Origin: Naegleria gruberi
Taxonomy: Eukaryota
DNA length: 64,000 nucleotides
Assembly: GCA_000004985.1 (NCBI GenBank)
Contig: GG738905.1
Reading direction: 5' to 3' (one strand)
The notes below the pieces were generated by a model. That model saw only the letters and a program-made list of their open reading frames with translations, was not told where the DNA came from and did no database searches. A program made the translations under genes and the position numbers. The stretch's first letter is position 1. Each line of letters opens with the position of its first letter. This document shows positions 7,457 through 46,701 of the stretch, piece by piece.

Positions 7457-7462
7457 GGCGCC
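7457..7462. promoter_or_regulatory. GGCGCC-core element (AAGGCGCCAATTTT) 13 nt upstream of the 7475 ATG, in the 44-nt spacer after BCKDHA.
   Basis: One instance of the recurrent TTGGCGCCAA(A)-like GC-rich palindrome found in AT-rich spacers. Confidence 0.3.
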
Positions 7463-7474
7463 AATTTTGAAAAA

Positions 7475-9280
7475 ATGTCATCAACAAATGTAACGGAAAA
7501 GCAACAAATTAAACAACCTAAATCATCATCACCACCACTACCTCCCTCATCATCCTCAACAATTCCCACGCCAATATCTTCAAATAAGCCAAAATTAAGG
7601 AAGAAATCTTCAATGAAAAACAATGATAACAAACCCGAACCTTATGATCCCTTCAATTTATTTGAATACGACAATAGAGCCATTGCACTACAAACACTTC
7701 AGAGAATTAATGATAATCTCCTCAACAATAATACATCTAACATTTCATCAGCACTCAATTATCAAGATATCAACAATGGAATATCCCCTAATTCATCTGT
7801 ATCATCATTTCATAATAGTAGTAGTAGAAGGAGAGCATCTATTTCTTCATCATCACTTACACCAAGATCTTTATCAACTAGTAATAATAATAGGAAGAGT
7901 CCTCGTCAGCTAAGAGAAACAACACCATCTTCACAACAACCTTCAGCACCAGTGAAAAGAACTATTTCCAATCAATCATCACCATCCAAGTTTTCATCAG
8001 TGAGTGGATCTTCAACAACTCCTCGACATAATGTGTTTAATAGATCAAATTCTGATTCTCAAACAATTTCAAATCATAGACCTTCCAATTCAAAGAGAAG
8101 GGCATCTATTGGTGGTATGGGAACAAGTAATTGTCAACAACATGAAAATAATTGTATATGTAGTCATTGTGGACATGAAATGAAATTAAAAGAAGAAAAG
8201 AAACCTCTCATCACACCAACAAATGAAATTTTCAAAGCCTTAACAGAAATTGAATATGAACAGGCGCTAAAACAAAGTATGAAAGGAATGGACAAGGTTA
8301 ATTTAAATGATGAAGAACAATTGGATTTAGTTGCTGAAATATTATCTGAAACTTTATTAAAGAATGATGGATTAAGTTTATCCTCGAAAAGAAAACAAAA
8401 ACTAAAGAAAGCAACTCACTTTTCACAAACTGAAACTTATTTTGAGAATAGAATTGATAATAGACCTTCACAAACAATAGAGAAACAATTTGATTTTACT
8501 AATTGTGAATCAACTAACAAGACAAATGTCGAAACAAATCAGCAATTAGTTAATTCTAATATTGTTAATAATAATAATAGAAATGCACCAATTAAGAAAA
8601 AACCAAATATTCAAATATTTAGAAATATTGAGGAAAAGAATATTTCACCTCTTGATGAGGAATGTAAATTAATTTCAGAACCATTTATTACAATTCAAAA
8701 TAATCGAATGAATTTCTATCCAAACGAACCAACAAGAATAGCACCTGTGAGTAGGAAGAAGGATTCACGCAATATTCCATCAAGCAAACAACCAATTTAT
8801 AATGAACAAAAGGTTCAATCAAGAAAATCATCACCTCAACAAACTTCATCAGTAACTGAAAACAACAATGAAACTCAAACTAATGCATACATTGAGTATG
8901 ATACTAATGAAGATCAACCTGATAGTATTAATACTGATACTACTAGTGATGATGATAACATGGTGTATAGAGATAAATGTCTGAACACTGATGATTGTTT
9001 AATTATGAATGAAGAAATAAGGAATGAACTTTATGAAAATGCTAAACGAAAAGGACAAGATGAAATAGTTAGAATGTATATTAATTCTAAATTGAAAGAG
9101 AGATTAACAAAGCAAAGTAAGAGAAGTGATAGAAAATCATCTCTTTCATTCTTATTTCCTGGTCTTTACAAGAAAATTCAAACAGATTTGAAATTAAAAA
9201 GATTAGAAAGTACAGACCCATACAAAAAACCAATGAATAATATAATTCAAGAAATGAAATCTCTCGTTGAAAGATGTTGA
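7475..9280 (+). CDS. Ser/Asn-rich low-complexity hypothetical protein (601 aa).
   Basis: Long single ORF starting in an aaaaaATG context 44 nt after the BCKDHA stop. Serine-rich, with a small Cys/His cluster (CICSHCGHEM). No recognisable domain. Confidence 0.5.
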   Translation: MSSTNVTEKQQIKQPKSSSPPLPPSSSSTIPTPISSNKPKLRKKSSMKNNDNKPEPYDPFNLFEYDNRAIALQTLQRINDNLLNNNTSNISSALNYQDINNGISPNSSVSSFHNSSSRRRASISSSSLTPRSLSTSNNNRKSPRQLRETTPSSQQPSAPVKRTISNQSSPSKFSSVSGSSTTPRHNVFNRSNSDSQTISNHRPSNSKRRASIGGMGTSNCQQHENNCICSHCGHEMKLKEEKKPLITPTNEIFKALTEIEYEQALKQSMKGMDKVNLNDEEQLDLVAEILSETLLKNDGLSLSSKRKQKLKKATHFSQTETYFENRIDNRPSQTIEKQFDFTNCESTNKTNVETNQQLVNSNIVNNNNRNAPIKKKPNIQIFRNIEEKNISPLDEECKLISEPFITIQNNRMNFYPNEPTRIAPVSRKKDSRNIPSSKQPIYNEQKVQSRKSSPQQTSSVTENNNETQTNAYIEYDTNEDQPDSINTDTTSDDDNMVYRDKCLNTDDCLIMNEEIRNELYENAKRKGQDEIVRMYINSKLKERLTKQSKRSDRKSSLSFLFPGLYKKIQTDLKLKRLESTDPYKKPMNNIIQEMKSLVERC

Positions 9281-9335
9281 AATTATAACTACTTGAATTC
9301 TTTGTAACTTATCGTAAATTACCTTTGTTATTTAA

Positions 9336-9340
9336 GCGCC
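9336..9340. promoter_or_regulatory. GCGCC-core element (TAAGCGCCATTTTT) about 40 nt upstream of the kinesin ATG.
   Basis: Degenerate variant of the same motif. Confidence 0.25.
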
Positions 9341-9380
9341 ATTTTTAAATTCATAAACGTTAAAAGCCTTTTAAAAAAAA

Positions 9381-11552
9381 ATGAGTCTACAAGACTCTCC
9401 GTCATCATCAGCCTTAATTCAAGATGAAATGCTTCATCACTCTCCAAATGATACTCATGAATTTTTAGTGAGGAAAACAACAAATTATGATTGTGATGTT
9501 AGTTATGATATTAGTAGATCCGGACTATATTCTTCATTCTCTAGTAGTAGTATTTGTAGTAATATTCTTGATGAATCCAATACAATGCTTGTTTTTCCAT
9601 CTCCCATTGAAAAGACATCAATTAATCATCAAACTAATCAAGAAATATCCCCTCCAGGAGGTAGAACTGTTGTTGATGGAAATAATAGTGGAGATGATAG
9701 TTTAATGTTAGGTTTGCCTTCTCCAATAGATTCTTCTTGTTATCAAACACCTGTTCAGCAAAGTACAGCCTATAAGAAGAGAATGATATTTAGTGATTAT
9801 TCATCTATTGGACCATGTTCAGTAAAATCAGATTGGAGTGATGTTCCATTAAGTGAATTGAGTAATATCCAAACACCACTCAAAAGAAATGTATATATAA
9901 CTGATTCAACTCCAAGAAATGTAGTTAATGCTCTTGTATTGAATAAGGGATTCTTATCAAGCGATTCTAAGAGAAAGAGTTTAAAGGTTAAAAAATTAAA
10001 TGTTTCAGGTTCTCCTCAAAGAATATTTGATGATTTGGAATTGTCAAATATTATTGAAGAAAAGGAAAATTCTAATCCACAATTTCAACAACAATCACTT
10101 CAACTCAATAATAGTAATTGCTCAACTATTCATAATGGACAAGCATCTAAGAATTCATCCTCAATATTTTCCTCACTTAAAGATTTAAAGTATTACAATG
10201 AGTCGTCTGGTATTTTAGATTCACCTCCTGAATATAGTTTATGTAGTTGCTGCAAGAGTAAAGATAGAGAAATTGAAGAATTGAAAAGAAGATTATTTGA
10301 ACAAGAAGAAAAGTTTAATGATTTATTGAAAGAACATCAAAAATATTTAACTCTAGATAGATGTGATACATTATCGGATACTTCAACTTTGTCAACTGGT
10401 TCAAATCAATCGGATACTTCAACTAGGAAAACACTAAGAAATGTAATTTCATTTGAAAATTCAAAATTTATCAAATTGTACTGCCGAGTTAGAAATTATA
10501 CACAAGATGAATTAGAAAATGTACAGAAAAATCAAACCAATCTAAGTTCCTTAATAACACATTCAGAAGCAAATTTGTCATTTGAGTCATCAAGTCAAAT
10601 GTTGGAAGGACAAATTCAAGATGAAAGTAATTCAGTGGTTGCAACAGACGAAACAAGAATCACTATAAGAAAGTACTTAAAGAATTCAGTATCTGGAATG
10701 GGAAGTAAAATGTCAAAATATGAATTTCATTTTGACAAAGTATTTGGATATAATACAGATAATGATGAAGTTACAGATTCATTAAGTAATTTCATTGACA
10801 GAGTTGTCTATGATGAACCTCAACAAAGATTGACAGTTCTTGCGTATGGTGCAACTGGTAGTGGTAAAACATATACTATTAATGCTGTAATGAATTATGT
10901 GCAGAATATGTTGTTTAGCCCTGAAAAGAGTAGAATAGTTAGAGGTGTTTATTTCAATTGTTTTGAAATTTATAATGAACAAACTCAATTATTAATTAGC
11001 AAAGATGTTGATGAATTTATAAGAGTGGATTCAGTTCAAGATTTAGAAAGATTAATTATTAAATCCCAGAATAAGAGAAAATGTGCTGAAACTGAATATA
11101 ACAAGAAAAGTTCTAGAAGTCATTGCATTTATAGATTCAAAGTTTGTTTTGATCAACAAGATGATCAATACTACAATGTTTTGAATGTGATAGATTTGGC
11201 TGGAAGTGAGAAGTTATCAAGTGATGAATTTATTCAAAATCAAACAAAAGATACTTCAGATTTTAGAGATTTGAAAAAGATGAGAAATTCAGAGACTGTC
11301 AATATTAACAAATCACTTTCAGTGCTAAGCCAAGTAATTAAGGGACTTGCTCAAGGATCTAAATTCATTAATTATAGAGACTCTGTTCTGACAAAGATTT
11401 TAAAGAATGATTTATCTCAAGTTGCTTTGATTGTGAATATTAAACCTCCAACTCAATCCAAAGACAAGATTGAAATTGAAAAGATTGTAAATTCATTAAC
11501 CTTTGCAAAGAAAGCAAATGCTTTTGAGATTACAAAATCCAATGTAAAATAA
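9381..11552 (+). CDS. Kinesin-like protein with a divergent C-terminal motor domain.
   Basis: The C-terminal half carries the kinesin motifs GATGSGKTYTI (P-loop), SSRSHCIY (switch I) and IDLAGSE (switch II). The N-terminal ~440 aa are non-motor and low-complexity. Confidence 0.7.
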   Translation: MSLQDSPSSSALIQDEMLHHSPNDTHEFLVRKTTNYDCDVSYDISRSGLYSSFSSSSICSNILDESNTMLVFPSPIEKTSINHQTNQEISPPGGRTVVDGNNSGDDSLMLGLPSPIDSSCYQTPVQQSTAYKKRMIFSDYSSIGPCSVKSDWSDVPLSELSNIQTPLKRNVYITDSTPRNVVNALVLNKGFLSSDSKRKSLKVKKLNVSGSPQRIFDDLELSNIIEEKENSNPQFQQQSLQLNNSNCSTIHNGQASKNSSSIFSSLKDLKYYNESSGILDSPPEYSLCSCCKSKDREIEELKRRLFEQEEKFNDLLKEHQKYLTLDRCDTLSDTSTLSTGSNQSDTSTRKTLRNVISFENSKFIKLYCRVRNYTQDELENVQKNQTNLSSLITHSEANLSFESSSQMLEGQIQDESNSVVATDETRITIRKYLKNSVSGMGSKMSKYEFHFDKVFGYNTDNDEVTDSLSNFIDRVVYDEPQQRLTVLAYGATGSGKTYTINAVMNYVQNMLFSPEKSRIVRGVYFNCFEIYNEQTQLLISKDVDEFIRVDSVQDLERLIIKSQNKRKCAETEYNKKSSRSHCIYRFKVCFDQQDDQYYNVLNVIDLAGSEKLSSDEFIQNQTKDTSDFRDLKKMRNSETVNINKSLSVLSQVIKGLAQGSKFINYRDSVLTKILKNDLSQVALIVNIKPPTQSKDKIEIEKIVNSLTFAKKANAFEITKSNVK

Positions 11553-11557
11553 TAATT

Positions 11558-12384
11558 TTATGGAGCAATTGTCATTAATAAAAGTAAAATGATGCAAGTT
11601 GCAATTACAAAAGCTAAAATAATCATATCCCTTCTATTCTTTTGTTGAATTCTATTCAAAAGTCCATCAATAACAGGAAATCTTCCTAAAAAAATAATTA
11701 CAATAATTTGTCAAATTAAAATTGACTTACCTTTCATATTATTAAGAACTCTATCAAAATTTCTAAATATTTCCATTTGTTCTTCTAGAGCTGCTTTGGA
11801 AGTGTGACCTTGTGTAATTAAATTTTGCATTCTTATATTGGTATCTCTTAATCTTTGAATTTCAGATTCACGTGATGATCCTAACAACGAATCATTTTCA
11901 TTATTTCTATTCGAATTATTTAAATAATAAATAAAATCTATTAAACATACACATCCTCTTCATCAGAAATATACAATAAATCATTCCTATTTTTCTTATT
12001 TGCTAATCTTTGTCTTCTCGATTTAAATTCTTGTTTAATTCTATTAAAAAATGTTTCATGTTGTTCATATTGATACACAATTGATGATGATAATATTGAA
12101 TGATTATTTTCATCTTTAATAAATTCCTTCATCCTATCATTTACTTCTCGTAACTATTAAAATAATTAATAATCACATCATGATGATCATCATACCTCTT
12201 TTAATAAATGGTCAATTTCCTCCGTTATTGCTTCAAACAACTGTTCCGATGTTGATATATTGTTAGATACTATTGGTTCTTGGAATAATTCATCCTCTAT
12301 CTTGGTTGCTAAATTTTGGTAAGTGATTAACTTTTGTTCAATTTTATTTTCAAGTTGTGTAGCTTGTTTGAGCAGTTGATTCAT
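11558..12384 (-). CDS. GOSR1: Golgi SNAP receptor complex member 1 (GOS-28-type Qb-SNARE). Four exons.
   Basis: Exons are about 12384-12195, 12139-11950, 11905-11731 and 11685-11558. The first two introns are ~44-55 nt; the last intron is about 11686-11730 with a GTAAGT donor and a tttttttAG acceptor. The N-terminus MNQLLKQATQLENKIEQKL matches the GOSR1 N-terminus. The C-terminus GRFPVIDGLLNRIQQKNRRDMIILAFVIATCIILLLL matches the GOSR1 SNARE/TM end (ANRFPAVNSLIQRINLRKRRDSLILGGVIGICTILLLL). Its stop codon lies 5 nt from the convergent kinesin stop. Confidence 0.8.
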
Positions 12385-12545
12385 TTTTTTAATATTAAAA
12401 ATAAATTTGATGACCTATAATGCTCGTCATCACACTCTGCTTCTTTAAATTTCACCATCGTTTGTTACTACTATTGAATCTTTTTAAATCTATTTAAATC
12501 TCAAAACTTATTTCCTTATTATATTGAATGAAATGATTTAAATGG

Positions 12546-13097
12546 CTACTTTTCATTAACAACTAGTCCAACAATTGTCTTCACACTTTCATCATTCAAT
12601 CTTCCAAGTTTTGGTTGATCTTCAATGTTGTTTGATTGGTCTGAGTGATCTGAATGATGAAATAAAAGTGGTTTGTAAAAAGTATAGTTGGTAAGATGAA
12701 ATGATTTCCAATTAGGAGAAGTTTGATAATAGTAAAATCTCAAGTTATTAAAAACCATATCTTTTTTGTAGGCTGAACTAAACTCTTTTAAACAATTAAT
12801 TCTAACATAATTCTGTGATTCATTTTCATAATTTGGATTTTCCATTAATTGATATTTAGATAATAATGTAATAAATGTTCCATTTTGTGCTTTGTATTTA
12901 ATTGTTACATGGGAACAATAGAAATTTCGAAATATTATAAATCCAATCTTATTAATTCATCAATAAAAACAATTCCGAACCAAACATACTTGAGTGGGTT
13001 TTTCAAATTTTACATCTTGATATATTAAACAAGGTCTCTTTGATTGTTCCTTAACAATGTCCAGTAATTTAAAATCACACAAAACAGGTGTGTTCAT
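12546..13097 (-). CDS. Hypothetical protein. Two same-frame ORFs are separated by tandem in-frame TGA TGA, so the model is uncertain.
   Basis: ORFs 12960-13259 and 12546-12845 are in the same frame. Only a TGA TGA pair at about 12955-12960 interrupts the frame. The likely start is the internal Met MNTPVLCDF at 13097, which has a TTGGCGCCAAA element ~40 nt upstream. The region between the ORFs has no canonical intron. Confidence 0.35.
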
Positions 13098-13133
13098 CTT
13101 TTTGTATTTTTTATTTAAAAAAATGTAATTAAA

Positions 13134-13143
13134 TTGGCGCCAA
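13134..13143. promoter_or_regulatory. TTGGCGCCAA palindrome between the divergent 13097(-) and 13441(+) gene starts.
   Basis: Exact 10-nt palindrome. Confidence 0.3.
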
Positions 13144-13440
13144 ACTAATTTTACACACTTGTAATGAATATTTTCTAATTCCACCTTATAGGAGGAAGAT
13201 ATCTTATTGCAAAGTGAATGACCAACATTAATAACAATATTTGCACTCTTTAAAAACATTTAATGAGAACACACATTATTGTAAAAGTTCAAAAGCAAGC
13301 TATTATTGGAACAGTAGGAACCTGCAGCAGAGAACCACATTGGAAATTTATTATTAAAAAAAATATTGATCATCATCAACCCTTTAAAAAAATTACACGT
13401 GATTGATCATCATTAAAACTTTCCAACAATTGTACAGAAA

Positions 13441-14043
13441 ATGACTGATAAACGTATTGTAGAAATTATTAACACCAAACAATTCGGTACACTTCTTTAT
13501 GAATGCGAATCACATGAAGTTGAAGTTTTGGCCGGACAAAAACAATCAGCATCAACTCTCTTCTATGGTTCCTTCCTCTTGGGCTATCTTATCAATGATG
13601 ACTTGAATAATTGTAGATTCCTTTGGAAGAGAATGCCAAATGATGCTAAAAAAGATGATGATCTTAAAGGAATATGGGAGGTTGCCAAACAATTATGGAA
13701 TAGAAACTATGAAGGAGCCTACCAAGCAATTTCTCAATTGAGCCCTGCATCTCCACAATTGAAGGAACTTATCAATTATTTTGTCGATCAATTACGTCAA
13801 AGAACATTGTTACTCATTTCAAAGGCTTATGCTAATATTAACACTAATGATTTGATGAAATGTTTAGGTATCAATGATGTGAATGTTTTGAATCAAATTG
13901 TTTCACCATTGAATTGGACTTTTGATAGTGCTACTAATGTATACATTCCACAAGTAATTACTGTTAAACCACCAGAAATGCCTGTTGGTCTCGATGCTAT
14001 CAAGGGTATGACTCAAAAGGCTGTCTTTTTGGAATTGGACTAA
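13441..14043 (+). CDS. CSN8: COP9 signalosome subunit 8 (PCI domain, CSN8/PSMD8 family).
   Basis: The 200-aa ORF aligns with CSN8: LLYECESHEVE with LLDQCENQELE, NCRFLWKRMP with NARYLWKRIP, and GIWEVAKQLWNRNY with GIWSVGQRIWQRDF. Length matches. Confidence 0.7.
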   Translation: MTDKRIVEIINTKQFGTLLYECESHEVEVLAGQKQSASTLFYGSFLLGYLINDDLNNCRFLWKRMPNDAKKDDDLKGIWEVAKQLWNRNYEGAYQAISQLSPASPQLKELINYFVDQLRQRTLLLISKAYANINTNDLMKCLGINDVNVLNQIVSPLNWTFDSATNVYIPQVITVKPPEMPVGLDAIKGMTQKAVFLELD

Positions 14044-14644
14044 ATACTTTCTATTAAAAATCATTGTACTATTAAATGTTATTGTTGCTTCCAACATTTT
14101 GAGAAGATGAACTTTGATGAAATTAGTCTACACTCTATTAAATCAATGTCTCATTATGAATTCAAATGAATAGTGTAATGAGTATTAGACTTTAAATGAT
14201 ACATTTAATTGTTATGCTTTACACGTGCACAAACAAGTCTAAAAAATCACCCATTCTCCTTTGTTTGGTTCCAAAGTAGACGTTCGTACCAGAATATTTT
14301 TCATCGGTGCGAATCCATCAAAAGCCTTGGGAACGACAACAACAAAAAATACACCACACTGAACAACTCCGCCATCCACTTGTCAACAACAAACCACCAC
14401 CCAACAACCCAACAAATATTGTTGAACGTTGAATTGATAATAGTCTAAATTGTCTTTGGCAATACGCAAACAGTTGTTGTCCCAAAATCATCAACAAGAG
14501 TAACAATTACCAAGTCTTCAACGAACTAAACAATAACTATCTCCAAAGCTTTTATTATACAAAATTTAATTGCTTTTAATAACTAATTATCCACCATCAT
14601 ACAACTATTATTTATTATTTAAAAACGATCATCACTAAAACAAA

Positions 14645-15782
14645 ATGAATAACAACAATCCACAATCAAGACCTCCAATGTTGAACGTATCAACGGTCGT
14701 TAAATCAAAATGGAAAATTCAAGGAAAGTTAGGTCAAGGTGCATTCGGAGAAACCTATGCTGCTGTCGATCTTCATAGTGGCGAGGATGTTGCCATTAAA
14801 GTAGAAAAACTAGATAACAAGAAGATCGTACTTAAATTAGAAGTTATCGCTTTGAAGAAAGTTCAAGCTTGTCCATATGTTGTAAGATACATTCACAGTG
14901 GAAGACAAGACGATTACAATTTTCTTGTCATGGAAAGACTGGGAGAAAGTTTAGCTGATTTACGTAAACGAACACCTCGTGGAGCTTTCTCAATGAGTAC
15001 AACATTGAGATTAGGTATTCAAATGATTGAAAGTTTAGAAGGTGTACACAAATTAGGTTATATTCATCGTGATGTGAAGGTATGTTAATATTATTGTTAT
15101 TGTTTATTATAATTTTTTCATTATTTAGCCATCTAACTTTGTAATGGGAAGATCGAAACCTAAAAGAGGAAGAACCTATCTCATCGATTTTGGTCTAGCT
15201 CGTAAATATAAATTACCAAGTGGTGAAATTAGACCACCACGTAGAAATGCTGGATTTAGAGGTACAGCTCGTTATGCATCTATAAATTCCCATCATTCTA
15301 AAGAATTGGGAAGACGAGATGATTTGTGGTCTGTTTTTTATGTGTTGGTAGAATTTGCTTTAGGTTCCCTTCCATGGAGAAAGATCAAAGACAAAGAACA
15401 TATTGGTGAACTGAAAGAACGGTTCACAAATGCAGAATTGGTTAAAGATTTACCAAATGAATATCAATTATTTATGGAACATTTACAAAAATTAGGATAT
15501 GCTGATGAACCTGATTATGATTTTTTGAAGTCATTACTTCTCCAAGTATATAGCAGAGATGGTTATTCACATGATGAACCATTCGATTGGCAAAGAAGAG
15601 ACAAACAATCAATACCACCACATATTGATCTCACTAGTATTGTTGATGATCAACCTGTTGTTTCTGCCACTGAAAACTTCCCTCAAAAGTTTGTCAATGG
15701 ACAAAAGAGTGAAGATAAACCACCAAAGAATAATGTTGATTCTGAAAAGTCAAGCAAAGGATGTAAATGCGTGATTTTGTAG
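14645..15782 (+). CDS. Tau-tubulin kinase-like protein kinase (CK1 group). Two exons.
   Basis: Exon 1 is 14645-15079 and ends HRDVK with a GTATGT donor. The intron is 15080-15128 with the acceptor tatttAG. Exon 2 is 15129-15782. The spliced protein reads HRDVKPSNFVMG. It carries GQGAFGE, a VAIK lysine, LIDFGLARKY, RPPRNAGFRGTARYAS and DDLWSVFYVLVEFALGSLPWRKIKDKE, all close to TTBK1/2. Confidence 0.8.
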
Positions 15783-15910
15783 ATGGACAATATATAGCTC
15801 AATACCTTTTTATTATTGAGGCATTGTATTTCTATTTGCACCAAAATAGTGATCTTAGTCGAGTTTTTAATCTCTGAAATGTAAATGAATAAACCAATTA
15901 TTTGATTCTT

Positions 15911-15920
15911 TTGGCGCCAA
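15911..15920. promoter_or_regulatory. TTGGCGCCAA palindrome about 43 nt upstream of the SWIM/RING gene ATG.
   Basis: Exact 10-nt palindrome in the TTBK-to-SWIM spacer. Confidence 0.3.
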
Positions 15921-15962
15921 ATCATTTACTAGTATTTGAAAGTAATAACTACTCATAAAAAA

Positions 15963-17336
15963 ATGATGTACAAACAGCAAGTGGATAAGGAGGACGTAGA
16001 AAAATTAGCTCTCAATATTGAACAAGTTCAAAATCCAGGAGAAACACCATTCTATGTTATTAAGAGTCTCGGAAAAACAAATTTTCTTATAAAACACAAA
16101 GGATCAAAATATAAAGTTGCAATAGGAGAAAGGAATGAATGTTCTTGTTCATTGAAACGTTCCGTAAATTGTGTTCATATTTTATTTGTTTTATTGAAGA
16201 TTTATGGCTTGGAAACCGATTCGGCACTTCTTAAGAAGGTTGCATTCAATGAATATGAACTTCAAAATATTCTTCAAGGAAAAAAGTGTTATTATGAAAA
16301 AAAGAAACATTTATTTACAAAGGATCATCAAACACAGTCTTCATCTGGTTCTGAAGAGAGTTCGAAAAAAAGAGGTCCAAGACAAATTGAGGAAGGTGAT
16401 TGTTGTCCAATTTGTATGGATGAAATTTCAGAAAAAGACATTGATGTCAGTTTAGTGTGTTGTAGATATTCATGTGGTAATTATATTCATGCAAATTGTT
16501 TAAGGGAATACTTTGCAAATTCATATCAGAAACATAGATCTTGTCCTTTTTGCAGATTTGATTGGAAAAATGATCTTGACAATCAAATACTTGATTTAAA
16601 AAATAAGAAAATGAAAAAGAAGGAGGAAAATACTGTCACTTCATTTAATTGTGCTGAATGTCAATCTCAATTAGAAAGTAAGAAGAAAATATTTGTTTGC
16701 CATTTTTGTTACAAATGCAGAAACTCAGTGGTACCATTTTGTAATAACTGTTATCGTAGTAAGGATGTGCACATTCAACACAAAGGAAAATATTATGTTG
16801 TTAGAATTGGAAATTCAAAGAAAATTGATCATGAAATTCTCAAGGAGGAAGAAATAACAGATAGGCAGAAAGATATTATGCCATTTGCTAATTCTAATGA
16901 AGGTGTTGGGAACACATCACCAATAACTTGTCAAATTCATTCATTTCCCAATTTAATGTCCTTACCAAAGCAGTTGACTTTTCCAAATCCTCAATCAATT
17001 CAACCACCACAATTCACACCATCCCATCAACAAAATCAACCTAGTAGACTTTCCAAACCAATGTCAAGTAATTTATCTTTTAAAAACAAGGACAAACATT
17101 CAAACAGTTCAGAAGATTTAGATTCCCTATTATCAATTATTGGAAACACGTATGTTGATCAACCAAAATCACCAAGAAAACAATACAATTCCAGTCTTAA
17201 AAGAGGATTTACATTCACTCAACAAAGTAAGAGAACAGAGACTTTGAATCATACCAATAATTTAGACTCACTCTTGACCATAACGAATCATCATCCTTCA
17301 ATATTTATTCCAAATTCTTCACCCAAAAGAAAGTAA
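15963..17336 (+). CDS. SWIM zinc finger + RING-H2 + ZZ-type zinc finger protein (ZSWIM2-like E3 ligase architecture).
   Basis: SWIM motif CSCSLKRSVNCVHILFVL. RING-H2 motif CCPICMDEI...CCRYSCGNYIHANCLREY...CPFCRFDW. A second Cys-rich ZZ-like module FNCAECQSQ...CHFCYKC...CNNCY. The likely start is MMYKQQ at 15963 (aaaaaaATG). The ORF-track start at 15936 uses TTG. Confidence 0.6.
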   Translation: MMYKQQVDKEDVEKLALNIEQVQNPGETPFYVIKSLGKTNFLIKHKGSKYKVAIGERNECSCSLKRSVNCVHILFVLLKIYGLETDSALLKKVAFNEYELQNILQGKKCYYEKKKHLFTKDHQTQSSSGSEESSKKRGPRQIEEGDCCPICMDEISEKDIDVSLVCCRYSCGNYIHANCLREYFANSYQKHRSCPFCRFDWKNDLDNQILDLKNKKMKKKEENTVTSFNCAECQSQLESKKKIFVCHFCYKCRNSVVPFCNNCYRSKDVHIQHKGKYYVVRIGNSKKIDHEILKEEEITDRQKDIMPFANSNEGVGNTSPITCQIHSFPNLMSLPKQLTFPNPQSIQPPQFTPSHQQNQPSRLSKPMSSNLSFKNKDKHSNSSEDLDSLLSIIGNTYVDQPKSPRKQYNSSLKRGFTFTQQSKRTETLNHTNNLDSLLTITNHHPSIFIPNSSPKRK

Positions 17337-17362
17337 TAATAAAATTAACAAAATGAAAATGT

Positions 17363-17370
17363 GCGCCAAA
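17363..17370. promoter_or_regulatory. GCGCCAAA element (a second GCGCCAAC lies at 17427-17434) upstream of the IFT74 ATG.
   Basis: Two half-site variants in the 116-nt spacer. Confidence 0.25.
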
Positions 17371-17452
17371 AATCTAACCTCCTCTAACTACTCATCAAAA
17401 ATTGTAGTCAAAAATAGGTTGTATGAGCGCCAACAAAAACCAACCATAAAAA

Positions 17453-19231
17453 ATGAGTCGACCATTAATGAGCAGAGGTCTTTTTACTGGTGCCAATCCA
17501 GGTAACACAACAGCTGTGCCAGGAACAGGTACAAGGAGAGGAACAGGAACAGCAACAAGAGCTGGTATGCAAACAGGAGGTGTTGGCATTGGCCTTAGTA
17601 CTGATATTACTGTTGAGGATAGACCAGTTACCAGAGAAGGAATGTTTGGTATGAAAGCCCCTTTAACAAATCAAAAAAGACAAGTTCAATCATCATCATA
17701 TTTTCTCGGAGAATTACATGCAAAGATTTCATCATTGACTGAAGAATTGGAACGTTTAAGGAATGAAGGAAGAAAACTTCAACAGGATCGTGTTCAATCT
17801 GAAGCTTTAGTAAAAAAAGAAGCAGATTTAAAGGATGAAATTGTTCAATTAACAAGTAGAGCTAGGGATTTGAATGCAAGTGTCGAAAAACTTCAACAAT
17901 TCGACGCTATCAATGCTCAAGATAGAGAGCCATTGGAAAAATTAAAGGCTCAATATGAAAAGTTTAAAGCAGAGAATGAAAAACTTAAAGAAACAAACAA
18001 TGAAATTTTCAGAAAGAGAAATGCGAGTGATGAAATGATTAGAGATATTGAACAAAAGATACAAGACTATCACGATGATCTTCAAGATAAATTAAATGTG
18101 GATCTTTCAAAGAGGAATATTTACTTCTCTCTTAAAGATGAAAAAGCAGAATTGGAAGAAGTTTATAGAGAAATGGAACATCAAATGCAAGAATTGAATG
18201 ATTACTTGCAAGGAGATGGTGGTGCTGTATTATCGAATGATCCTCAAAAGCAAAAATACTATGAAAAGCTGCAAGAAAAGAGAGCTCTAGAAAAGAGAAA
18301 ACAAGATGTACAAAATAAGCTTAGTGGTGGCACTGTTACAGACGAAGAAAAGAACCATTTAATGCTCCAAATGAAAAATGATAAGCAAGATGCTGCTCGT
18401 CTCCAAGAAGCAATCAAACAATGTAAAAATCTGGTAACTTCTGAAAAGGAAAAAATGAAGGTACTTTCTGATCAATTGGATTCACATAGAGGAGATAAGT
18501 CAAAGAGTTACTCTGAATTGAAGAATAAGGATACAGTACTGACTAAGTATATGGCTAACTTTGATACTGACAAGAATAAGGAATTGAAGGAATTAGCTGA
18601 CCATCAAGAAATCATTGTAAAATTATTAGATCACATTAGTAATAACATGGGAGATCAAGAAAATATGCCAACTCAAACAAAACTTGAAGAAATGAAAGAC
18701 GATTTGGCTTTCAAACAGGACCAAAGAAATATTTCGTTATCTACACTTGAAAGATTGAGACAAGATTTGAAACAAAGAAAGGAAGAAATGGATAAGGTTA
18801 ATAATTTGGAAGTCAAGATTGTTCAAGATATGAAACGATTAGATGAATCGATGAGAGACATGAAAAATTCTCTTGATACATACAGTAATATTGATTTGTT
18901 AAAGAGGCAATACGAAAAGCAAAAATCTGATTTAGTGGAGAAGAGAGAACAATTGAAATTATTGAAAGAAAATCTGAAAACGGAAATGCACTTGCTCAGC
19001 AGATATAATACTACTTTGGATAGAAAAGTTAAATCCAATGATTTATATACTATTCTCAATGATTTAGAACAAAAGATTAGAGTGTATGAACAAAACAATT
19101 TCCTTCTCAATGATTATATTACTCAAAAGGGTGCTGAATCTGATTATTCAATGGTTAAGTATAATACAATGAAACTTGTAAATGAAGCATGTGAATCAGT
19201 CAAGGAAGCAGCTGCCAATAATGTTTTCTAA
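17453..19231 (+). CDS. IFT74: Intraflagellar transport protein 74 (IFT-B core).
   Basis: 592-aa single ORF. It has a Gly/Arg/Thr-rich basic N-terminus, then DRPVTREGMFGMKAPLTNQKRQVQSSSYFLGELHAKISSLTEEL, which aligns with human IFT74 HRPVTQQGLTGMK...[25 protein letters not shown]. A long coiled coil follows. Confidence 0.8.
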   Translation: MSRPLMSRGLFTGANPGNTTAVPGTGTRRGTGTATRAGMQTGGVGIGLSTDITVEDRPVTREGMFGMKAPLTNQKRQVQSSSYFLGELHAKISSLTEELERLRNEGRKLQQDRVQSEALVKKEADLKDEIVQLTSRARDLNASVEKLQQFDAINAQDREPLEKLKAQYEKFKAENEKLKETNNEIFRKRNASDEMIRDIEQKIQDYHDDLQDKLNVDLSKRNIYFSLKDEKAELEEVYREMEHQMQELNDYLQGDGGAVLSNDPQKQKYYEKLQEKRALEKRKQDVQNKLSGGTVTDEEKNHLMLQMKNDKQDAARLQEAIKQCKNLVTSEKEKMKVLSDQLDSHRGDKSKSYSELKNKDTVLTKYMANFDTDKNKELKELADHQEIIVKLLDHISNNMGDQENMPTQTKLEEMKDDLAFKQDQRNISLSTLERLRQDLKQRKEEMDKVNNLEVKIVQDMKRLDESMRDMKNSLDTYSNIDLLKRQYEKQKSDLVEKREQLKLLKENLKTEMHLLSRYNTTLDRKVKSNDLYTILNDLEQKIRVYEQNNFLLNDYITQKGAESDYSMVKYNTMKLVNEACESVKEAAANNVF

Positions 19232-23773: not shown

Positions 23774-26364
23774 TCAGAGTTTATTTATCTTTTCCAACAC
23801 TCTTTCCCTAATACTTTGAATGATAAGGTTGTCCCCAAACACTTCATTTAACACTTCGTTCAAACTACTATCAACAAGTGGTTGATGATATTTAGAGAAT
23901 AAGTTCCTTTCTTTTCCACCATTACTTCTTTCGAATAGAATCTTGTTTTTAAAATCATCAAGAAATGATTTTCTATTGAGCAGTGATGTGTCTGTTGTTT
24001 CTTCCCGTTCCCTTGCTTGTTTTGTTTGCAAGTATTTAAACTCATTGAGTGGAGTTTCCAGTATTTGCTTTGACAATTTTTGGTTACTATTCATTTGTTT
24101 TGGTAAGTATAAATCAAATACGTTTAGACCAAGATCCAGTTTCAAATGAGTCGTATCACAGTTCGGTCTGTGGTCCAAGTTCCAAAATCTACTCTTAATA
24201 ATTCTCTGTAGTGTGTAAATAATTTCTGATATGTGGTTGATACTAATCCAACTTTCCAGAGTGTATTTGCTATTTGATATTCTTGTGAATGGAAAGCATG
24301 ACATTAAACTCTCAAAAATGTGGCTGGGCATAACTGGACCTCTGTAAGCAAAACTAGGTATTGCAAGGTTATTACAATCTGTCAACTCGGTATAAAAGTA
24401 AAGAGAAATAGTGTTTAAAATTGAAACAAGCTCATTAAACACTATAAAAATCAGGTTTGATTTCAAATTTCTCTTTTTTTTCTCTAAAAATTCTAATAAG
24501 TAGGATTCCAAAACATGTGAAAGACTTCCTTCTTCATTAAAATGAAGAGAGAGCATTTGGGGTTCAGATAATTTCTTTGCAGCTTTGGAATGAACAACTG
24601 TTGGGTGACTATTTGAATATTCACTGTTTCTTTCCACAACCCTCGGTCTAGTATCTTCCCTAAAGTTTCTCCTCACTTTGGAATTCTCTGTTTTTTGAAC
24701 TAAACCATTCTAAAACTGTTAGTAAAAAAAGTGGTACAACTTACAGAAAAATAGAGATCAAGAACTAATTGTAGAATTTTGTCATCTCTTAAATCAACTT
24801 GACGTTTCGATGTTTTCCTAGAAAGTGCTTCAGACATGATAGTCTCCATATTAAATGTCCTCAAAGTATTGTTTCTCTTTGCTATTTCTTCTAAGGAAAT
24901 ATACTTGGATTGGTTTTCCTTAACTGGATAAAATATACAGTCCTCTTTCAATATTCTTTCTTCCCGTTTCTTTTCTGGTCTTTTGGGAGATGTTATTTCT
25001 GATTCTCTAACTTTGAAATCTTCCTTTGATTTGAGGGAGAGGAAAACCTTTTCAAGATTTTCTTTTGTTGTTGGCTGTGAAGATACTGGAACCGATTTTG
25101 TACTCGAAGATGATTTATCAGATCTATTATCCTCAACTACTGTACTTTCAATATTAATATTTTTTGCTAGTGGCTTAACCTTAGGAGATATTTTGATGGA
25201 TTGAATAGGATTGTAATTTTCAAGATCATCCTCTTCATTTTCAGATTTAGGAGAGTATGTTGAAGGAAGAGTAAATTTAAGAGTTGAAGTTTGTCTTTGA
25301 AGTATTGAGTTTTGATTAGATTGAAGAGTCGATTGTTTTGATGAAAGGTTTGGTTGGAGAGTTTGTTTTTGAGATGATATTGTGGATTGTTGTTCTTGTT
25401 GAATCGGTTGAACATTTTGAATTGAGGATTGAGATCTAGATGGCTGATGTGAAATTGGCAGAGCTAATTTCTGAAGAGTAGATGCTGTTGCAAGAGATGA
25501 TGTCGTTTCTTTCTGTGACTCTTGTTGAGGCTTGTAATTAATCTTAGGGGGGAGTGTCTTGGCAAAATTTTGATCCTGAATTGATTTTTGGTCAAAATTT
25601 CGATATGAATCACTTCTAATAGATTGACTGTATGGCTGATTCAAATAATTGTTTTGTGGCAGTTCTTGGGGAGTTTCTTTGTTATTGTTGATAGAGTTGA
25701 CCTGAGATTGCTCAATTTCTTCACTGTCATTTATCTCTTCCTGAGCTGCTTCATCATCGCTATAATCGTCGTAGTCATCCAGAGTTCTGTATTGTTTTTC
25801 AAAATTTACATTTTCCAGCTGGTCAGATTCATTGGATTCAAAACTTTCAGTTACTTGTTTCTCCTCTACAGTTGAAGGAACTGATGGTATTGCAATTTGT
25901 TCTTCTTTTGGAGGTGATTCAGTTTTTTTCACAATTCTGAATGAATTTGTTTGTTCATCTTCCTCAACATCGTCATCTGAAAGCTCAAAATTGTCATCAA
26001 AATCATCATCATCAGAATCCTCCAAATCATCAATTGTTCTGATTGGATTTGGTGATGGTGATTCTTGAGCTTGTTTTTCCTCCTGGTGTGATTCCTCAAA
26101 ATGTTCATTATCAAAATCATCAAAGCTCTCATTATGATCCACTTGTCCAAACATCATTGGATCCATTTCTTCCGATTCATGAGGATTATACTCTTGTTGA
26201 GGAACATAATCATTCTTCTTTGATGGAATAAGATCTTCATCCTCATCGTGATTTCTTGCTGATAATGTTTCACTGACTGTATCAAGTTGATTACTCTGTC
26301 CTCCCCAAGATGAACCATCAAAATCATCATCATCGAAATCATCCAAATCCACAAGGTTGTCCAT
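23774..26364 (-). CDS. Large acidic/Ser/Gln-rich hypothetical protein. Two exons.
   Basis: ORF 26364-24745 begins with an extremely acidic N-terminus (DDFDDDDFDG, DSDDDDFDDNFELSDDDVEEDE). It joins ORF 24709-23774 through a 35-nt intron at 24710-24744. That intron has a GTAAGT donor, a TACTAAC branch-site-like heptamer and a TTTTAG acceptor. The reading frame is restored exactly across it. The C-terminal ~300 aa form an uncharacterised globular region. Confidence 0.55.
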
Positions 26365-26399
26365 AATTTTTTGAAAAGCCTTTTTTTTGTAGTAATTTT

Positions 26400-26405
26400 G
26401 GCGGC
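26400..26405. promoter_or_regulatory. TTGGCGGCAAA variant about 36 nt upstream of the minus-strand 26364 start, between divergent genes.
   Basis: One-mismatch variant of the motif. Confidence 0.25.
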
Positions 26406-26486
26406 AAATTTTTCATCAATACAATTTCAGCTATTTAACAACAATTAAAATTATTAAAATTCCAATACATTTAATATCATTGATAA

Positions 26487-35145: not shown

Positions 35146-35155
35146 ACTCCATTAT

Positions 35156-38955: not shown

Positions 38956-39039
38956 ATCCCACTCAACAGAGTTGGTAAATGAATAAATTCAATATTGTTT
39001 ATTTACATATTAGTACATTTCAATAACCTGAAGAATTTC

Positions 39040-41528: not shown

Positions 41529-41638
41529 CTGGTAATGTTTGGAAAGTAATTGAAATGGCATTGTAAACAATCCGAAATAAAAAAAGTTCCTTAAGAAATC
41601 TAAAAATATTTTTAGAATTAAAAACAAATTAAAAAATT

Positions 41639-42706: not shown

Positions 42707-42732
42707 TTTTTAATATTAAATTTATATTAAAA

Positions 42733-43715: not shown

Positions 43716-43720
43716 ATTAT

Positions 43721-44611
43721 TTATTTGAAATATTTACATTCTGGGTTTTGGCGTTTACCATGTCCAAAACCTGGTAAATTCTTAGCATCTGGTTGTTGAG
43801 AAGCATAAACAGCAGCAGGAATGAGCTTTTTAGTAGTAGGTGCTTCCATATCAAATGATGTAAGATCAGTATATTGATTAAGTGGTGAGAAGAAAGAATT
43901 CGCTCTCAAATAATTGGCCCAAGAAAATTCTTGGAATTCTTGGTCAATCTTACCATAACCTCCTTGTCTTCTATCGAAATAAGCAAGAGAACGGAATGGA
44001 TCATTCTTTAAATACATAACTGAGGATGGAAGAGAATCTGGGAAATTATGTAATGGCTTGCCAAATTCATCATATGTATATGTCAAATTGTTCTTAATGA
44101 GAGTATTCCAGAAATTTGTCTTTGATAAGGTTGAATAATCTCTTTGAATAGTAGCGTAGACATATCTTTCAGTAATGTCACTATACTTTGGTGGAAGATA
44201 AGAACCCCTCATCATGAAAATAGCATAAATTAAATGGTGATGATCAGTAATATACAGACTAGAATTAGAATGGGTATGTTGATGATTAGAGTATGGACCG
44301 ATAACAACCGGAACTGGCTTCTTTTCTAATTGTTTGAAGAAGTCACCATTTTCAGCTAGTTCTTCCAATTTATCTCTTTTACATGCAGCAGCTACATAAC
44401 CAATTGGTAATTGTGTTGGAAAAGCATCAACAATTTTCATCAAACAAGTATCACCTTGCTTTGCAACACCCTTGTTAATCAAATCAAAACAGAAAACAGG
44501 TTCCGATGATTCTTTAGGTCCCTTAATCTTGAACCTTTCTTGGGGTGTTGCTGTTTGCACATAAATAACACCTAATACCAAAAGGATAGTTAATAGCGAG
44601 AACCCTCTCAT
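43721..44611 (-). CDS. Secreted hypothetical protein with a signal peptide.
   Basis: The probable start is MRGFSLLTILLVLGVIYVQTA at 44611, a classic signal peptide. The ORF extends to 44725. It is His-rich (HQHTHSN, ITDHHH). No family assigned. Confidence 0.45.
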   Translation of the reverse strand: MRGFSLLTILLVLGVIYVQTATPQERFKIKGPKESSEPVFCFDLINKGVAKQGDTCLMKIVDAFPTQLPIGYVAAACKRDKLEELAENGDFFKQLEKKPVPVVIGPYSNHQHTHSNSSLYITDHHHLIYAIFMMRGSYLPPKYSDITERYVYATIQRDYSTLSKTNFWNTLIKNNLTYTYDEFGKPLHNFPDSLPSSVMYLKNDPFRSLAYFDRRQGGYGKIDQEFQEFSWANYLRANSFFSPLNQYTDLTSFDMEAPTTKKLIPAAVYASQQPDAKNLPGFGHGKRQNPECKYFK

Positions 44612-44907
44612 CTTTTTTTTATTAAGATTTTTCGGAGTGTTGATATTGAGGCAGTGTAAGCTTTTAACAACAAAGATAAATAATGCGTACACATTTCTTT
44701 CTGTTAGTGAACCTTTCAATCTCATAGCATTTCAGTTTTTTGAAATTAGCTTTTCGAAATGTTCCCTCTGTAAATAGTTTTAGGAAACTAAATGAATATG
44801 AATCAATAATTAAGGGAATCAATGAGATGTAATAGTTGTAAACGGATTCTTATTTGATTGGATTAGTGGCGGCGGAATAGTTTTTTTTAGAATGAGGAAC
44901 GCTATTT

Positions 44908-45628
44908 ATGTGGTGGAATTTTGACGTCAATATCAAACCAATCAAAAAAATGAGTAGTAAAGTAGATGAAATTTGCAAAGTAGTACAGAAATACTCGGCT
45001 ATTGCATTTTCAGGCTTCTTAACTCTGCACTTGTCAAACACTATTGTGGGAAGAGTTTCACAGTCATTGTATGACACTTATCAATCATATTTGAGACAAG
45101 TGTATCGACCAAATTGGTTACTTGGAAGATCTGCTGAATATGTCTGCATTCTTACTCCACTAGCTGTTCATATAATTTGTGGTATTATTAGAATGAGTAG
45201 AAGATCATTTAATGAATCAAAATATGCCACTTGGATGGAATATTTGAAAAGTAAATTATCCAATCCATTACAACTCCACAGATATGCTGGATGGATTTTA
45301 ACCAGTATCGTTCCTATCCACGTTATTGCAACAAGATTCTTTTATCCAATTGATTCTGATTTCAGTCAAGTAACCCATTCTATGGAGAAGAAACCTGGTG
45401 CCTTAGTTATGCTTGCTACCTTATTATACTGCCATGTTATTGGCTGGTGTTTTCCATTATTCCTATGGATTGAATGCCACAATTTTCAAGTACAAGTTTA
45501 CAAAGAGATCTGTTTACATTGCATGTGGTGTTATATTTGCCTTGTCCTTTGCTGGATTCTTGGGCATGTCTGGTTATTTATATTCAAACATTGATAGATC
45601 CAACTATGAAATATGGAAACAATTTTAA
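44908..45628 (+). CDS. Multi-pass membrane protein of unknown family. The reading frame shifts near 45420-45470.
   Basis: ORF 44908-45594 has TM-like segments. A second, overlapping frame (ORF 45413-45628) gives a more protein-like C-terminus (GVIFALSFAGFLGMSGYLYSNIDRSNYEIWKQF). No intron of plausible size links the two frames. Confidence 0.4.
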
Positions 45629-45633
45629 ATAAA

Positions 45634-46392
45634 CTATAATTTAGATCTTCTTTCACTTGGATGTGATTCGGTGTATGGTTGTTTTTTCTCTTCCTCCCCA
45701 TCAGGAAGTATCTCAATAGTGACCCCTTCCTCTGCTTCTTTCTTTTCATCAGTGCCATCATTTTCTTGCGTGTTTTGTGGCTGGTTTGGTGCACCAAGTG
45801 GATTCTTTAAACCTAACATTCCAGCTAGGGCCTTTAATTTATCTTCGTTTTTGTGATATAATTCAAATAAATTATTACTATTCAATATTGGAGTTCCATA
45901 AACCTTTAAAGAATTAAGTTTGCATTTTCCATTTTGTTCCTCATCCAAAAGTTTGAATTGGAATTTCAAATATTTTAATTGAACAGGTTTAGAGAAAGAT
46001 ATCACAAACGGCCTTGTTCTTTTCAAATCCGTACTTCTGAGTCGTGTTAATTTTTTAAAATTAATCTTCTTTTCATCAATCGAGAATGAAATATTAATTT
46101 CTTTAGGAACAGAATTTTTATCCAAATCCAAAATAATTTTTCTAACATTGCAAGCCAAATATAATTCCAAAAGTAGTGTTTTTTGGTTGACAACATCGTC
46201 ATTATTCCATGATAAGCTTGTTGGAGGTGCATTTAAAACATGGGAGACATCCCGAACATTTTTGTTAGAAACTTCCAACAAGGAACTTCCTATCGAAGGA
46301 GAACTAATATTAACAATATTTTGCTGAGCATAATCCCAAATTTTTGGCACGAGAAGTGTGTAGAGAGCACCTGATGAAAGCATTTTTTTCAA
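45634..46392 (-). CDS. Galactose-binding-domain-like (discoidin/APC10/IFT25-like fold) protein. Assignment is tentative.
   Basis: 252-aa ORF. The middle region is beta-rich (LLLELYLACNVRKIILDL...VQLKYLKFQFKLLDEEQNGKCKLNSLKVYGTPI), reminiscent of F5/8-type-C-like domains. The C-terminus is acidic. Confidence 0.3.
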   Translation of the reverse strand: MKKMLSSGALYTLLVPKIWDYAQQNIVNISSPSIGSSLLEVSNKNVRDVSHVLNAPPTSLSWNNDDVVNQKTLLLELYLACNVRKIILDLDKNSVPKEINISFSIDEKKINFKKLTRLRSTDLKRTRPFVISFSKPVQLKYLKFQFKLLDEEQNGKCKLNSLKVYGTPILNSNNLFELYHKNEDKLKALAGMLGLKNPLGAPNQPQNTQENDGTDEKKEAEEGVTIEILPDGEEEKKQPYTESHPSERRSKL

Positions 46393-46691
46393 TTTTAAAA
46401 TAAATTATTAAATAATTATTATAATATTACAATATCAATTCAATGACGATCTTATTGTCCAATTATGTACAAGGTACAAAACTGTTCTCGATAGATTAAG
46501 AATAGCAATTCTAAAAAATTGAACAAAACATCAAACTGTTACCCCATCACGAATGCCACAACAGCGTCATCATCATACGAGTAGTAACCTCGTGAGCCAT
46601 CATCACTTTTTTTTCTTTGCCGCCTTGCTTGTGATTGCATTAATCATTCTCTATCTGATTGGAAAGGCCTTTGGATCAAAGTGATTTCAAA

Positions 46692-46701
46692 TTGGCGCCA
46701 A
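46692..46701. promoter_or_regulatory. TTGGCGCCAA palindrome (a CCCGCCAAAT lies at 46716-46725) about 60 nt upstream of the 46760 ATG.
   Basis: Exact 10-nt palindrome. Confidence 0.3.

Follow-up and report, generated by a model that had tools for sequence, protein, structure and literature searches.

The window analysed here, a stretch of 64,000 nucleotides (nt) on contig GG738905.1 of Naegleria gruberi, is compact and AT-rich: its GC content is about 31%, the genetic code is the standard one and the spacers between genes are very short, down to 44 nt. Our subject is a GC-rich box, built on GGCGCC or its half-site GCGCCA, that recurs in these spacers. The gene map was drawn from open reading frames and Pfam matches, and masking of the long reading frames left 23% of the window to be counted as non-coding. 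Expected counts were taken from dinucleotide-preserving shuffles (100 for GGCGCC).

The box stands before genes for a 601-amino-acid (aa) Ser-rich protein, a kinesin-14, a nicolin-like protein, a SWIM-RING protein, IFT74, a 554-aa acidic protein and a 490-aa protein, and in the spacer between a ParB-like gene and a gene for a 228-aa protein. Cluster, PDB and domain matches confirmed the labels kinesin, IFT74 and SWIM/RING of the original prediction, an earlier reading made from the letters of the window. The kinesin reading frame is an annotated N. gruberi kinesin-14 (same-length cluster member XP_002671391.1), the 592-aa protein matches the IFT74 chain of PDB 8bd7 over its whole length (E = 9e-37), and SWIM and RING domains were found in the 457-aa protein. 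A 169-aa gene occupies two exons on the minus strand (12546-13097), with a conserved start (MNTPVLCDFK...) at 13097; its product has no Pfam match and no PDB match, and is highly conserved in N. fowleri and N. lovaniensis. The spliced N. fowleri product aligned with human nicolin-1 at E = 5e-13. We provisionally call the gene nicolin-like, nicolin-1 being a subunit of the tubulin polyglutamylase complex. Neither Pfam nor PDB gave an informative match for the 601-, 490- and 554-aa carrier proteins, which are all of low complexity. Among the boxless genes are those for pyruvate dehydrogenase E1, malic enzyme, mitochondrial carriers, GET4, cofilin, NPC1, rhamnosidase, a Kelch-RhoGAP protein, UBX and Arv1. 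The sites in the window, the last two of them doubtful, are as follows.

7457-7465, plus strand: GGCGCCAAT box, 10-18 nt upstream of the ATG at 7475 of the 601-aa Ser-rich gene.
9336-9341, plus strand: GCGCCA box, 45 nt upstream of the kinesin-14 ATG at 9381.
13134-13143, no strand: TTGGCGCCAA palindrome, 37-46 nt before the start (ATG 13097) of the nicolin-like 169-aa gene on the minus strand.
15911-15920, no strand: TTGGCGCCAA palindrome, in full context TTTTGGCGCCAAAT (15909-15922), 43-52 nt upstream of the ATG at 15963 of the SWIM and RING gene.
17363-17370, plus strand: GCGCCAAA distal box, 90 nt upstream of the IFT74 ATG at 17453.
17427-17434, plus strand: GCGCCAAC proximal box, 26 nt upstream of the same ATG.
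26396-26409, minus strand: TTTTGGCGGCAAAT (gene strand: GCCGCCAAAA), about 35 nt before the ATG at 26364 of the gene for the 554-aa acidic protein.
44867-44877, no strand: TGGCGGCGGAA, a weaker box; its spacer is divergent, flanked by a ParB-like nuclease gene on the minus strand (ATG 44725) and by the 228-aa membrane protein gene (ATG 44908).
46692-46701, no strand: TTGGCGCCAA palindrome, about 60-68 nt upstream of the ATG at 46760 of the 490-aa gene, with TTCAAA at 46686-46691.
46714-46725, plus strand: TTCCCGCCAAAT, which reads ATTTGGCGGGAA on the opposite strand; the second box of this promoter, 35-46 nt before the ATG at 46760.
3786-3796, minus strand: TTGGGCGGGAA (gene strand: TTCCCGCCCAA), some 50 nt into the predicted coding sequence of a gene for a protein of about 1000 aa; of doubtful status.
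60972-61022, plus strand: GCGCGCTCGCCATTT and TGGCGGAC, both weak as GC boxes and 205-255 nt before the ATG (61227) of a CRAL/TRIO gene; membership of the family is doubtful.

The recurrence of GGCGCC goes well beyond chance, as had been claimed. There are four copies in the window (7457, 13136, 15913 and 46694) against 0.34 expected, and not one of the 100 shuffles reached four. TTGGCGCCAA occurs exactly at 13134, 15911 and 46692, with a one-mismatch version, TTGGCGGCAA, at 26398. The half-site GCGCCA/TGGCGC gave 10 matches, corresponding to seven distinct sites (1.38 expected), and SCGCCAAW gave 11 (0.84 expected); as with GGCGCC, no shuffle attained these counts. The tetramer GCGC itself is found only 13 times in the 64 kb. 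All one-mismatch relatives of the original prediction (9336, 17363, 17427, 26400, 44868 and 60972) are present as written, and its list lacked the textbook E2F box TTCCCGCCAAAT at 46714-46725. Equal occurrence in coding DNA, which it had named as a possible refutation, is not what we find: the seven GCGCCA sites all fall in the non-coding 23% of the window (0.233^7 = 4e-5), and each lies upstream of an ATG at a distance of 17-90 nt, inside a limit of 100 nt. In an unbiased comparison of k-mers, GCGCCA was the sole GC-containing word enriched in the non-coding DNA of the window; the other enriched words consist of A and T only.

Most boxes lie just upstream of start codons as predicted, at distances from about 13 to 90 nt, mostly 17-50 nt; the copy at 60972 is weak and lies some 250 nt from the next ATG. 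The spacers were expected to measure 44-150 nt, which holds for some of them, but the one before 15963 is 180 nt long and those at 13098-13440 and 46393-46759 measure about 340-370 nt. Even where the spacer is 160-370 nt long, the boxes remain close to the ATG. The palindrome at 13134 does precede a gene, not on the plus strand but on the minus strand (the nicolin-like gene), and it sits in a divergent spacer that this gene has in common with a CSN8/PSMD8-like gene (ATG 13441). The non-palindromic sites of N. gruberi, counted as independent ones, tend to share one orientation, about six being forward and one or two reverse, so that most point toward the gene. Overall, about 8 of the roughly 42 gene starts in the window have a proximal box, and two promoters, those of IFT74 and the 490-aa gene, bear two.

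The observed/expected ratio of CpG is 0.35 in coding and 0.52 in non-coding DNA, with GpC near 0.8 over the whole window. This difference between coding and non-coding DNA is small and cannot account for the pattern of boxes. The enrichment is seen in a CpG-depleted genome, from whose background the conserved CpG-containing boxes stand out. Strong depletion of CpG with GpC near 0.8 is consistent with cytosine methylation in N. gruberi.

For comparison we used syntenic loci of N. fowleri (L001) and N. lovaniensis (L003), of Willaertia magna (L005), of a relative with 79% kinesin identity (L004) and of a metagenome strain that is nearly identical (L006). A metagenome scan with IFT74 yielded no confirmed match from further relatives, and a search with IFT74 for transcripts gave only a genomic metagenome contig. 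Protein identity between the window and N. fowleri or N. lovaniensis reaches only about 50%, and outside short blocks the spacers cannot be aligned. Wherever the orthologue is annotated in these two species, a GC box of the same family was found in the orthologous spacer (9 of 9 comparisons, five promoters), at 20-40 nt from the ATG. The promoters read as follows.

IFT74: N. gruberi, two GCGCCA boxes; N. fowleri, ATGGCGCCAT, 34 nt from the ATG; N. lovaniensis, TTGGCGCCAT, 40 nt.
SWIM-RING: N. gruberi, TTGGCGCCAA; N. fowleri, CCCCGCCTGG (L001 19778); N. lovaniensis, TTTCCCGCCTGG (L003 19541).
Kinesin-14: N. gruberi, GCGCCA; N. fowleri, CCCGCC; N. lovaniensis, GCGCGCGC; L004, CCGCCATTTTG; Willaertia, TTGGCGC.
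Ser-rich: N. gruberi, GGCGCCAAT; N. fowleri, gene unannotated and no box; N. lovaniensis, GCGCCAAAAA, 20 nt (L003 8806); L004, GGCTCC.
169-aa gene: N. gruberi, TTGGCGCCAA; N. fowleri, GGCGCG (L001 14011); N. lovaniensis, TTGGCGCT (L003 13909).

The drift at orthologous promoters stays within SSCGCS (GCGCC, CCGCC, CCCGCC, GCGCGCGC). The promoters of the E1 dehydrogenase, 404-436-aa, GOSR1 and kinase genes have no box in N. fowleri or N. lovaniensis, and these four neighbours are likewise boxless in N. gruberi, save for one CCGCCA at 14369 between the CSN8-like and kinase genes. The gene for the protein of about 1000 aa is discordant: a GGCGC/GGCGCC box lies 36 nt (N. fowleri) or 28 nt (N. lovaniensis) upstream of it, and N. 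gruberi has only the intragenic TTCCCGCCCAA. GCGCCA is also the most strongly enriched GC-rich 6-mer between genes in non-orthologous loci of N. fowleri, N. lovaniensis and Willaertia (10 of 12, p = 1.7e-5). L001, L003, L005 and the further locus L007 together hold 25 GC boxes without likeness to a tRNA, and 16 of them lie between genes, where only 19% of the DNA is found (p = 1e-6); left out of these counts are four Willaertia boxes in L005, one inside a tRNA-Arg gene and three within a stretch resembling a tRNA. Conservation at orthologous promoters and enrichment in the loci of relatives together indicate an element under selection and a property of the clade, not a peculiarity of the window. 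On this comparative evidence, the box is retained by purifying selection at orthologous promoters, with the kinesin-14 copy retained out to Willaertia.

The kinesin-14 promoter keeps three blocks in five taxa: the GC box, then TTTAAA or TTTGAA 2-4 nt further on, and then AACGTTAAA (TAACGGTAAA in Willaertia). The aligned segments are 9336-9364 in the window, L004 6741-6770, L001 9964-9995, L003 9963-9990 and L005 9906-9945. In N. gruberi the box is followed by TTTAAA (9344-9349), which resembles the cell-cycle genes homology region (CHR) of animal promoters, and by AACGTTAAA (9356-9364), so that GCGCC-ATT-TTTAAA spans 9336-9349. Among the kinesin-14 promoters of the relatives, this CHR-like block reads TTTGAA, TTCAAA or TTTAAA. 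The Ser-rich promoter has a similar arrangement, GGCGCC-AAT-TTTGAA at 7457-7471 with TTTGAA at 7466-7471. At the corresponding place in L004 (4935-4960), GGCTCC replaces GGCGCC and the adjoining TTTGAA is retained; GGCTCC could be either a lost CpG or a tolerated variant.

Which protein might read such a box? The canonical E2F/DP site is TTTSSCGC, with a palindromic form TTTGGCGCCAAA and the form TTTCGCGCCAAA of the DHFR type. Aligned on the gene strand, our sites give the consensus SSCGCCAAA, that is TTTGGCGS on the other strand. An SSCGCS core with a T-run or A-run is found in the three copies of TTGGCGCCAA and in GGCGCCAAT, GCGCCAAA, TTCCCGCCAAAT and TTTTGGCGGCAAAT; TTTTGGCGCCAAAT and TTCCCGCCAAAT are classical E2F forms, and one site, which shares the promoter of the 490-aa gene with a palindrome, has the exact form TTCCCGCCAAA. 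The quality of the flanks is poorer in a minority of boxes (GCGCCATTTT, GCGCCAAC). The search for E2F/DP-family factors that the original prediction had proposed shows that N. gruberi encodes E2F, DP, DEL and RB. Its E2F (P0010) has E2F_TDP and CC-MB domains and orthologues in N. lovaniensis, N. fowleri, Willaertia and Acrasis, and in its DNA-binding domain 24 successive residues, the recognition helix among them, match those of human E2F4 without a difference (structure 1CF7, E2F4-DP2-DNA). An N. gruberi DP (RRRVYDALNVL), a two-domain protein of the DEL/E2F7-8 type and RB are in the source data of PMC4862756. Since the recognition helix is the same as in human E2F, a protein of this specificity is present in the cell. 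The resemblance of the box to E2F/DP sites, noted from the outset, is strengthened by the consensus, by the exact TTCCCGCCAAA and by these proteins with their conserved DNA-contact helices of the RRXYD type.

We propose, with a probability of about 0.65, that the boxes are putative E2F-family sites of Naegleria, placed in the proximal promoter of roughly every fifth gene of the window. The binder would be an E2F-DP heterodimer or, on the TTCCCGCCAAA form, a two-domain protein of the DEL/E2F7-8 type. With the ATG only some tens of bases away, the box would lie at the transcription start or shortly before it, and bound E2F-DP, with or without an RB pocket protein, would switch the carrier genes on or keep them off. 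Binding by protein, the sign of the regulation and the programme served (cell cycle, mitotic spindle or flagellar differentiation) are what we infer here. Several observations weigh against this proposal. Several sites are without the full T-run of the E2F consensus, such as AAGCGCCATTTT before kinesin-14, and the orientation bias of SCGCCAAA and the tight spacing to the ATG appear to be features not usually stressed for E2F sites. The carriers that can be named are related to microtubules and are not S-phase genes, and no replication gene lies within the roughly 170 kb of heterolobosean DNA examined. In N. lovaniensis the 1.3-kb spacer before the E2F gene is boxless, and so are the upstream regions of three cyclin B genes, which come from N. 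fowleri, from Willaertia and from a close relative.

The original prediction had taken the box for a general core-promoter or initiator-type element, which would position transcription starts for all kinds of genes. The closeness to the ATG (mostly 17-50 nt here and 20-40 nt in N. fowleri and N. lovaniensis), kept even in long spacers, and the common direction of most non-palindromic copies relative to the gene are what one would expect of such an element. There is also the precedent of the mammalian DHFR promoter, where the overlapping E2F sites TTTCGCGCCAAA at the start site were first described as the initiator-binding activity HIP1. Yet the claim is not supported by the gene counts, which leave it very unlikely: only about 8 of some 42 gene starts have a box, genes of general metabolism and trafficking are boxless, other loci have 0-2 boxed promoters per 10-12 genes (L007, L010 and L011; 0 of 12 in L010 from N. 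fowleri and 1 of 11 in L011 from Willaertia), distances vary from 13 to 90 nt and two promoters hold two boxes each. Because four in five promoters do without it, the box is not a general core-promoter element, and a gene-specific element of the E2F type appears, from the sequence evidence at hand, to be the best-supported reading. In the boxed promoters themselves a role at or beside the transcription start is possible. Spacers down to 44 nt would place the box at or next to that start, and in the TATA-less promoter of mammalian DHFR, E2F sites do lie at the start site.

A different possibility is that the element is real and is read by another, possibly lineage-specific protein with a preference for the palindrome TGGCGCCA. 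That palindrome is indeed the strictest core to recur, its flanks being only A/T-rich, several copies have CCAT or CCAAT in place of CCAAA, and the typical cell-cycle genes E2F and cyclin B are boxless in relatives. What makes this unlikely is the way the box drifts between orthologues: the changes among GCGCC, CCGCC, CCCGCC and GCGCGCGC follow the degeneracy of the E2F core SSCGCS and not that of a strict palindrome. An exact TTCCCGCCAAA beside a palindrome in one promoter and the E2F recognition helix unchanged from human point the same way. That the box acts in the mRNA leader, as an element of the 5' untranslated region for translation or stability, is highly improbable. It lies near the AUG, tends to one orientation and, with spacers down to 44 nt, may be transcribed in some cases, but three of the copies in N. 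gruberi are perfectly palindromic, RNA folding of seven leaders showed no unusual stability against shuffles (z from -1.4 to +2.1), and the base changes between species retain the E2F core where they would break RNA pairing. Palindromic and drifting forms fit recognition as DNA, and leaders of ordinary stability make a role at the RNA level unlikely. As for chance or base composition, CpG is slightly better tolerated outside genes (0.52 against 0.35); such an origin can hardly be true for a word whose counts no shuffle reached, which is the sole GC-containing k-mer enriched in non-coding DNA, which is enriched again in independent loci of three other species and which is kept at orthologous promoters.

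Some further sources and binders were considered and rejected. The flanks of the copies have nothing in common beyond the box, unlike those of a repeat or mobile element, and the window holds no tRNA gene as a source of GC boxes. The CCAAT of NF-Y is present in only some copies. NFI, a metazoan family, binds TTGGC-N5-GCCAA, and the half-sites here are at zero spacing.

Set against canonical E2F/DP sites, the putative Naegleria sites have the same core with A/T flanks (TTTTGGCGCCAAAT; half-site SSCGCCAAA) and probably the same promoter-proximal location, and the cognate family is encoded with its recognition helix unchanged. They differ in their carriers (kinesin-14, IFT74 and nicolin-like in place of replication genes), in lying unusually near the ATG and in tending to one orientation. 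The closest parallel in another protist is Cryptosporidium parvum, with the E2F-like upstream motifs TGGCGCCA/DTTGSCGCCH and TTTGGCGGGAAV (PMC3734150). Both motif forms, TGGCGCCA and TTTGGCGGGAA, are identical in the two organisms, the box at 46714-46725 has the same form as TTTGGCGGGAAV, and in both cases the setting is one of short spacers, a compact AT-rich genome (about 30% GC) and functionally mixed genes (PMC3734150). In C. parvum, however, the motifs are over-represented in 163 of 200 gene clusters, comprising 2,379 genes and most of those analysed, and no RB is known (PMC3734150), whereas in the window about one promoter in five is boxed, and N. gruberi has RB; the two organisms also belong to different groups, Discoba and Apicomplexa.

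In animal G2/M genes controlled by DREAM/MuvB, a GC-rich cell-cycle-dependent element (CDE) is followed at a spacing of 4 nt by the CHR, TTYGAA. The kinesin-14 and Ser-rich promoters of Naegleria likewise have a GC box and then TTTAAA or TTTGAA after 2-4 nt, and the three-block arrangement kept in five taxa before kinesin-14 recalls animal CDE/CHR together with Myb sites. Only 3-4 Naegleria boxes have such a neighbour, with varying spacing and orientation, and we regard this as a resemblance only. A further likeness is to the E2F4/5-Multicilin programme of animal multiciliated cells, in that an E2F-type site stands here before genes (IFT74, nicolin-like) that serve when centrioles and cilia are made de novo; in animals, E2F4/5 chiefly drives centriole-amplification genes, and the IFT genes are RFX targets.

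The carriers may form a cell-cycle or a microtubule-programme regulon. In the window, genes related to microtubules or cilia are boxed in 3 of 3 cases (kinesin-14, IFT74 and nicolin-like), compared with 5 of about 39 others (Fisher p = 0.005, a post hoc comparison). Mismatch-repair genes are regulated by E2F in animals, and in N. lovaniensis a GCGCGC box lies about 100 nt upstream of a 1233-aa MutL/PMS-like gene (L007 17609-19313), in whose translation the N-terminal MutL/PMS signature VVKELIENSLDA ... DNGIGI ... FGFRGE was read by eye. The kinesin-14 of the window has an acidic tail (isoelectric point 5.2), and it is probably the single mitotic kinesin-14 paralogue with a negative tail that was described in Naegleria (Kennard et al., preprint 10.1101/2024.01.08.573270). 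Microtubule genes of Naegleria are expressed only in mitosis or differentiation (preprint 10.1101/2024.01.08.573270), and Naegleria is without RFX, FOXJ1 and XAP5, the regulators of its sharply timed cilium-gene programme being unidentified according to a 2025 review (PMC12183034).

A bolder proposal, speculative and on balance unlikely, is that the E2F-type box is the shared cis-element of 'microtubule-on-demand' genes, with a DREAM-like E2F/DP/RB switch controlling the differentiation from amoeba to flagellate. Its targets would be the mitotic-spindle and the flagellar or basal-body genes that are silent in interphase amoebae, and partners specific to each programme would act beside E2F, one candidate being the CGTTA element, like those of Myb and of the mitosis-specific activator (MSA), in the kinesin-14 and cyclin B promoters. 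If true, it would name a transcription factor for cilium genes in a eukaryote without RFX, FOXJ1 and XAP5, and push the link between E2F and ciliogenesis seen in animal multiciliated cells back toward the last eukaryotic common ancestor. As a separate observation, the cyclin B orthologues share a Myb/MSA-like upstream element of the type CCGTTA (ACCGTTAACC; AACGGATCTAGCCGTTACAC; TCCGTTACAC ... ACAACGG ... AACGTTACG), which lies at L009 ~1840-1860, L010 ~9675-9700 and L011 ~9870-9950. This element resembles the CGTTA[A/C]AC block of the kinesin-14 promoter, and the shared CGTTA may be an element of mitotic genes.

Our literature search returned no description of this motif in Naegleria, although its coverage was incomplete and a prior report is possible; nor did it yield useful transcription-start data for N. 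gruberi or a named regulator for the mitotic programme of Naegleria. The type of element is well known, and what appears to be new is its presence, conservation and promoter placement in Heterolobosea. E2F, DP and RB probably go back to the last eukaryotic common ancestor; documented binding sites come mostly from animals and plants, with a few protists besides. If confirmed, conservation of such a box in Heterolobosea, a group of Discoba, would make the DNA side of this circuit equally ancient. The box would also provide a concrete, testable handle on transcription in Naegleria: it is short, rare and easily scanned, and published RNA-seq courses of differentiation and of mitotic synchrony can thus be checked against it.

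The boxed genes are not evenly spread. Five boxed promoters fall within 10 kb of the window (7457-17434), and the syntenic loci of N. fowleri and N. lovaniensis each have 6 boxed genes of about 13, compared with 0-2 per 10-12 elsewhere. This cluster may be a co-regulated neighbourhood. At the left end of the window, positions 1-3842 have a GC content of only 20-23% and code, on the minus strand, for the coiled-coil protein of about 1000 aa, which is rich in Asn, Ser, Thr and Lys.

In Willaertia, locus L005 contains a tRNA-Arg gene at 12843-12915 and, at 7800-7960, a tRNA-Ser-like stretch in which the D-arm region is duplicated and which is called by neither ARAGORN nor Rfam. The GC boxes of the gene and of this stretch have nothing to do with the promoter motif. 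Finally, on a metagenome contig of a Naegleria relative (L009 140-190), the E2F-like boxes ATGGCGCGAAA and TTTTGGCGGCAAG stand just before AAAATG within a gene call; this is probably an unrecognised promoter upstream of a gene for a NAD-binding dehydrogenase.

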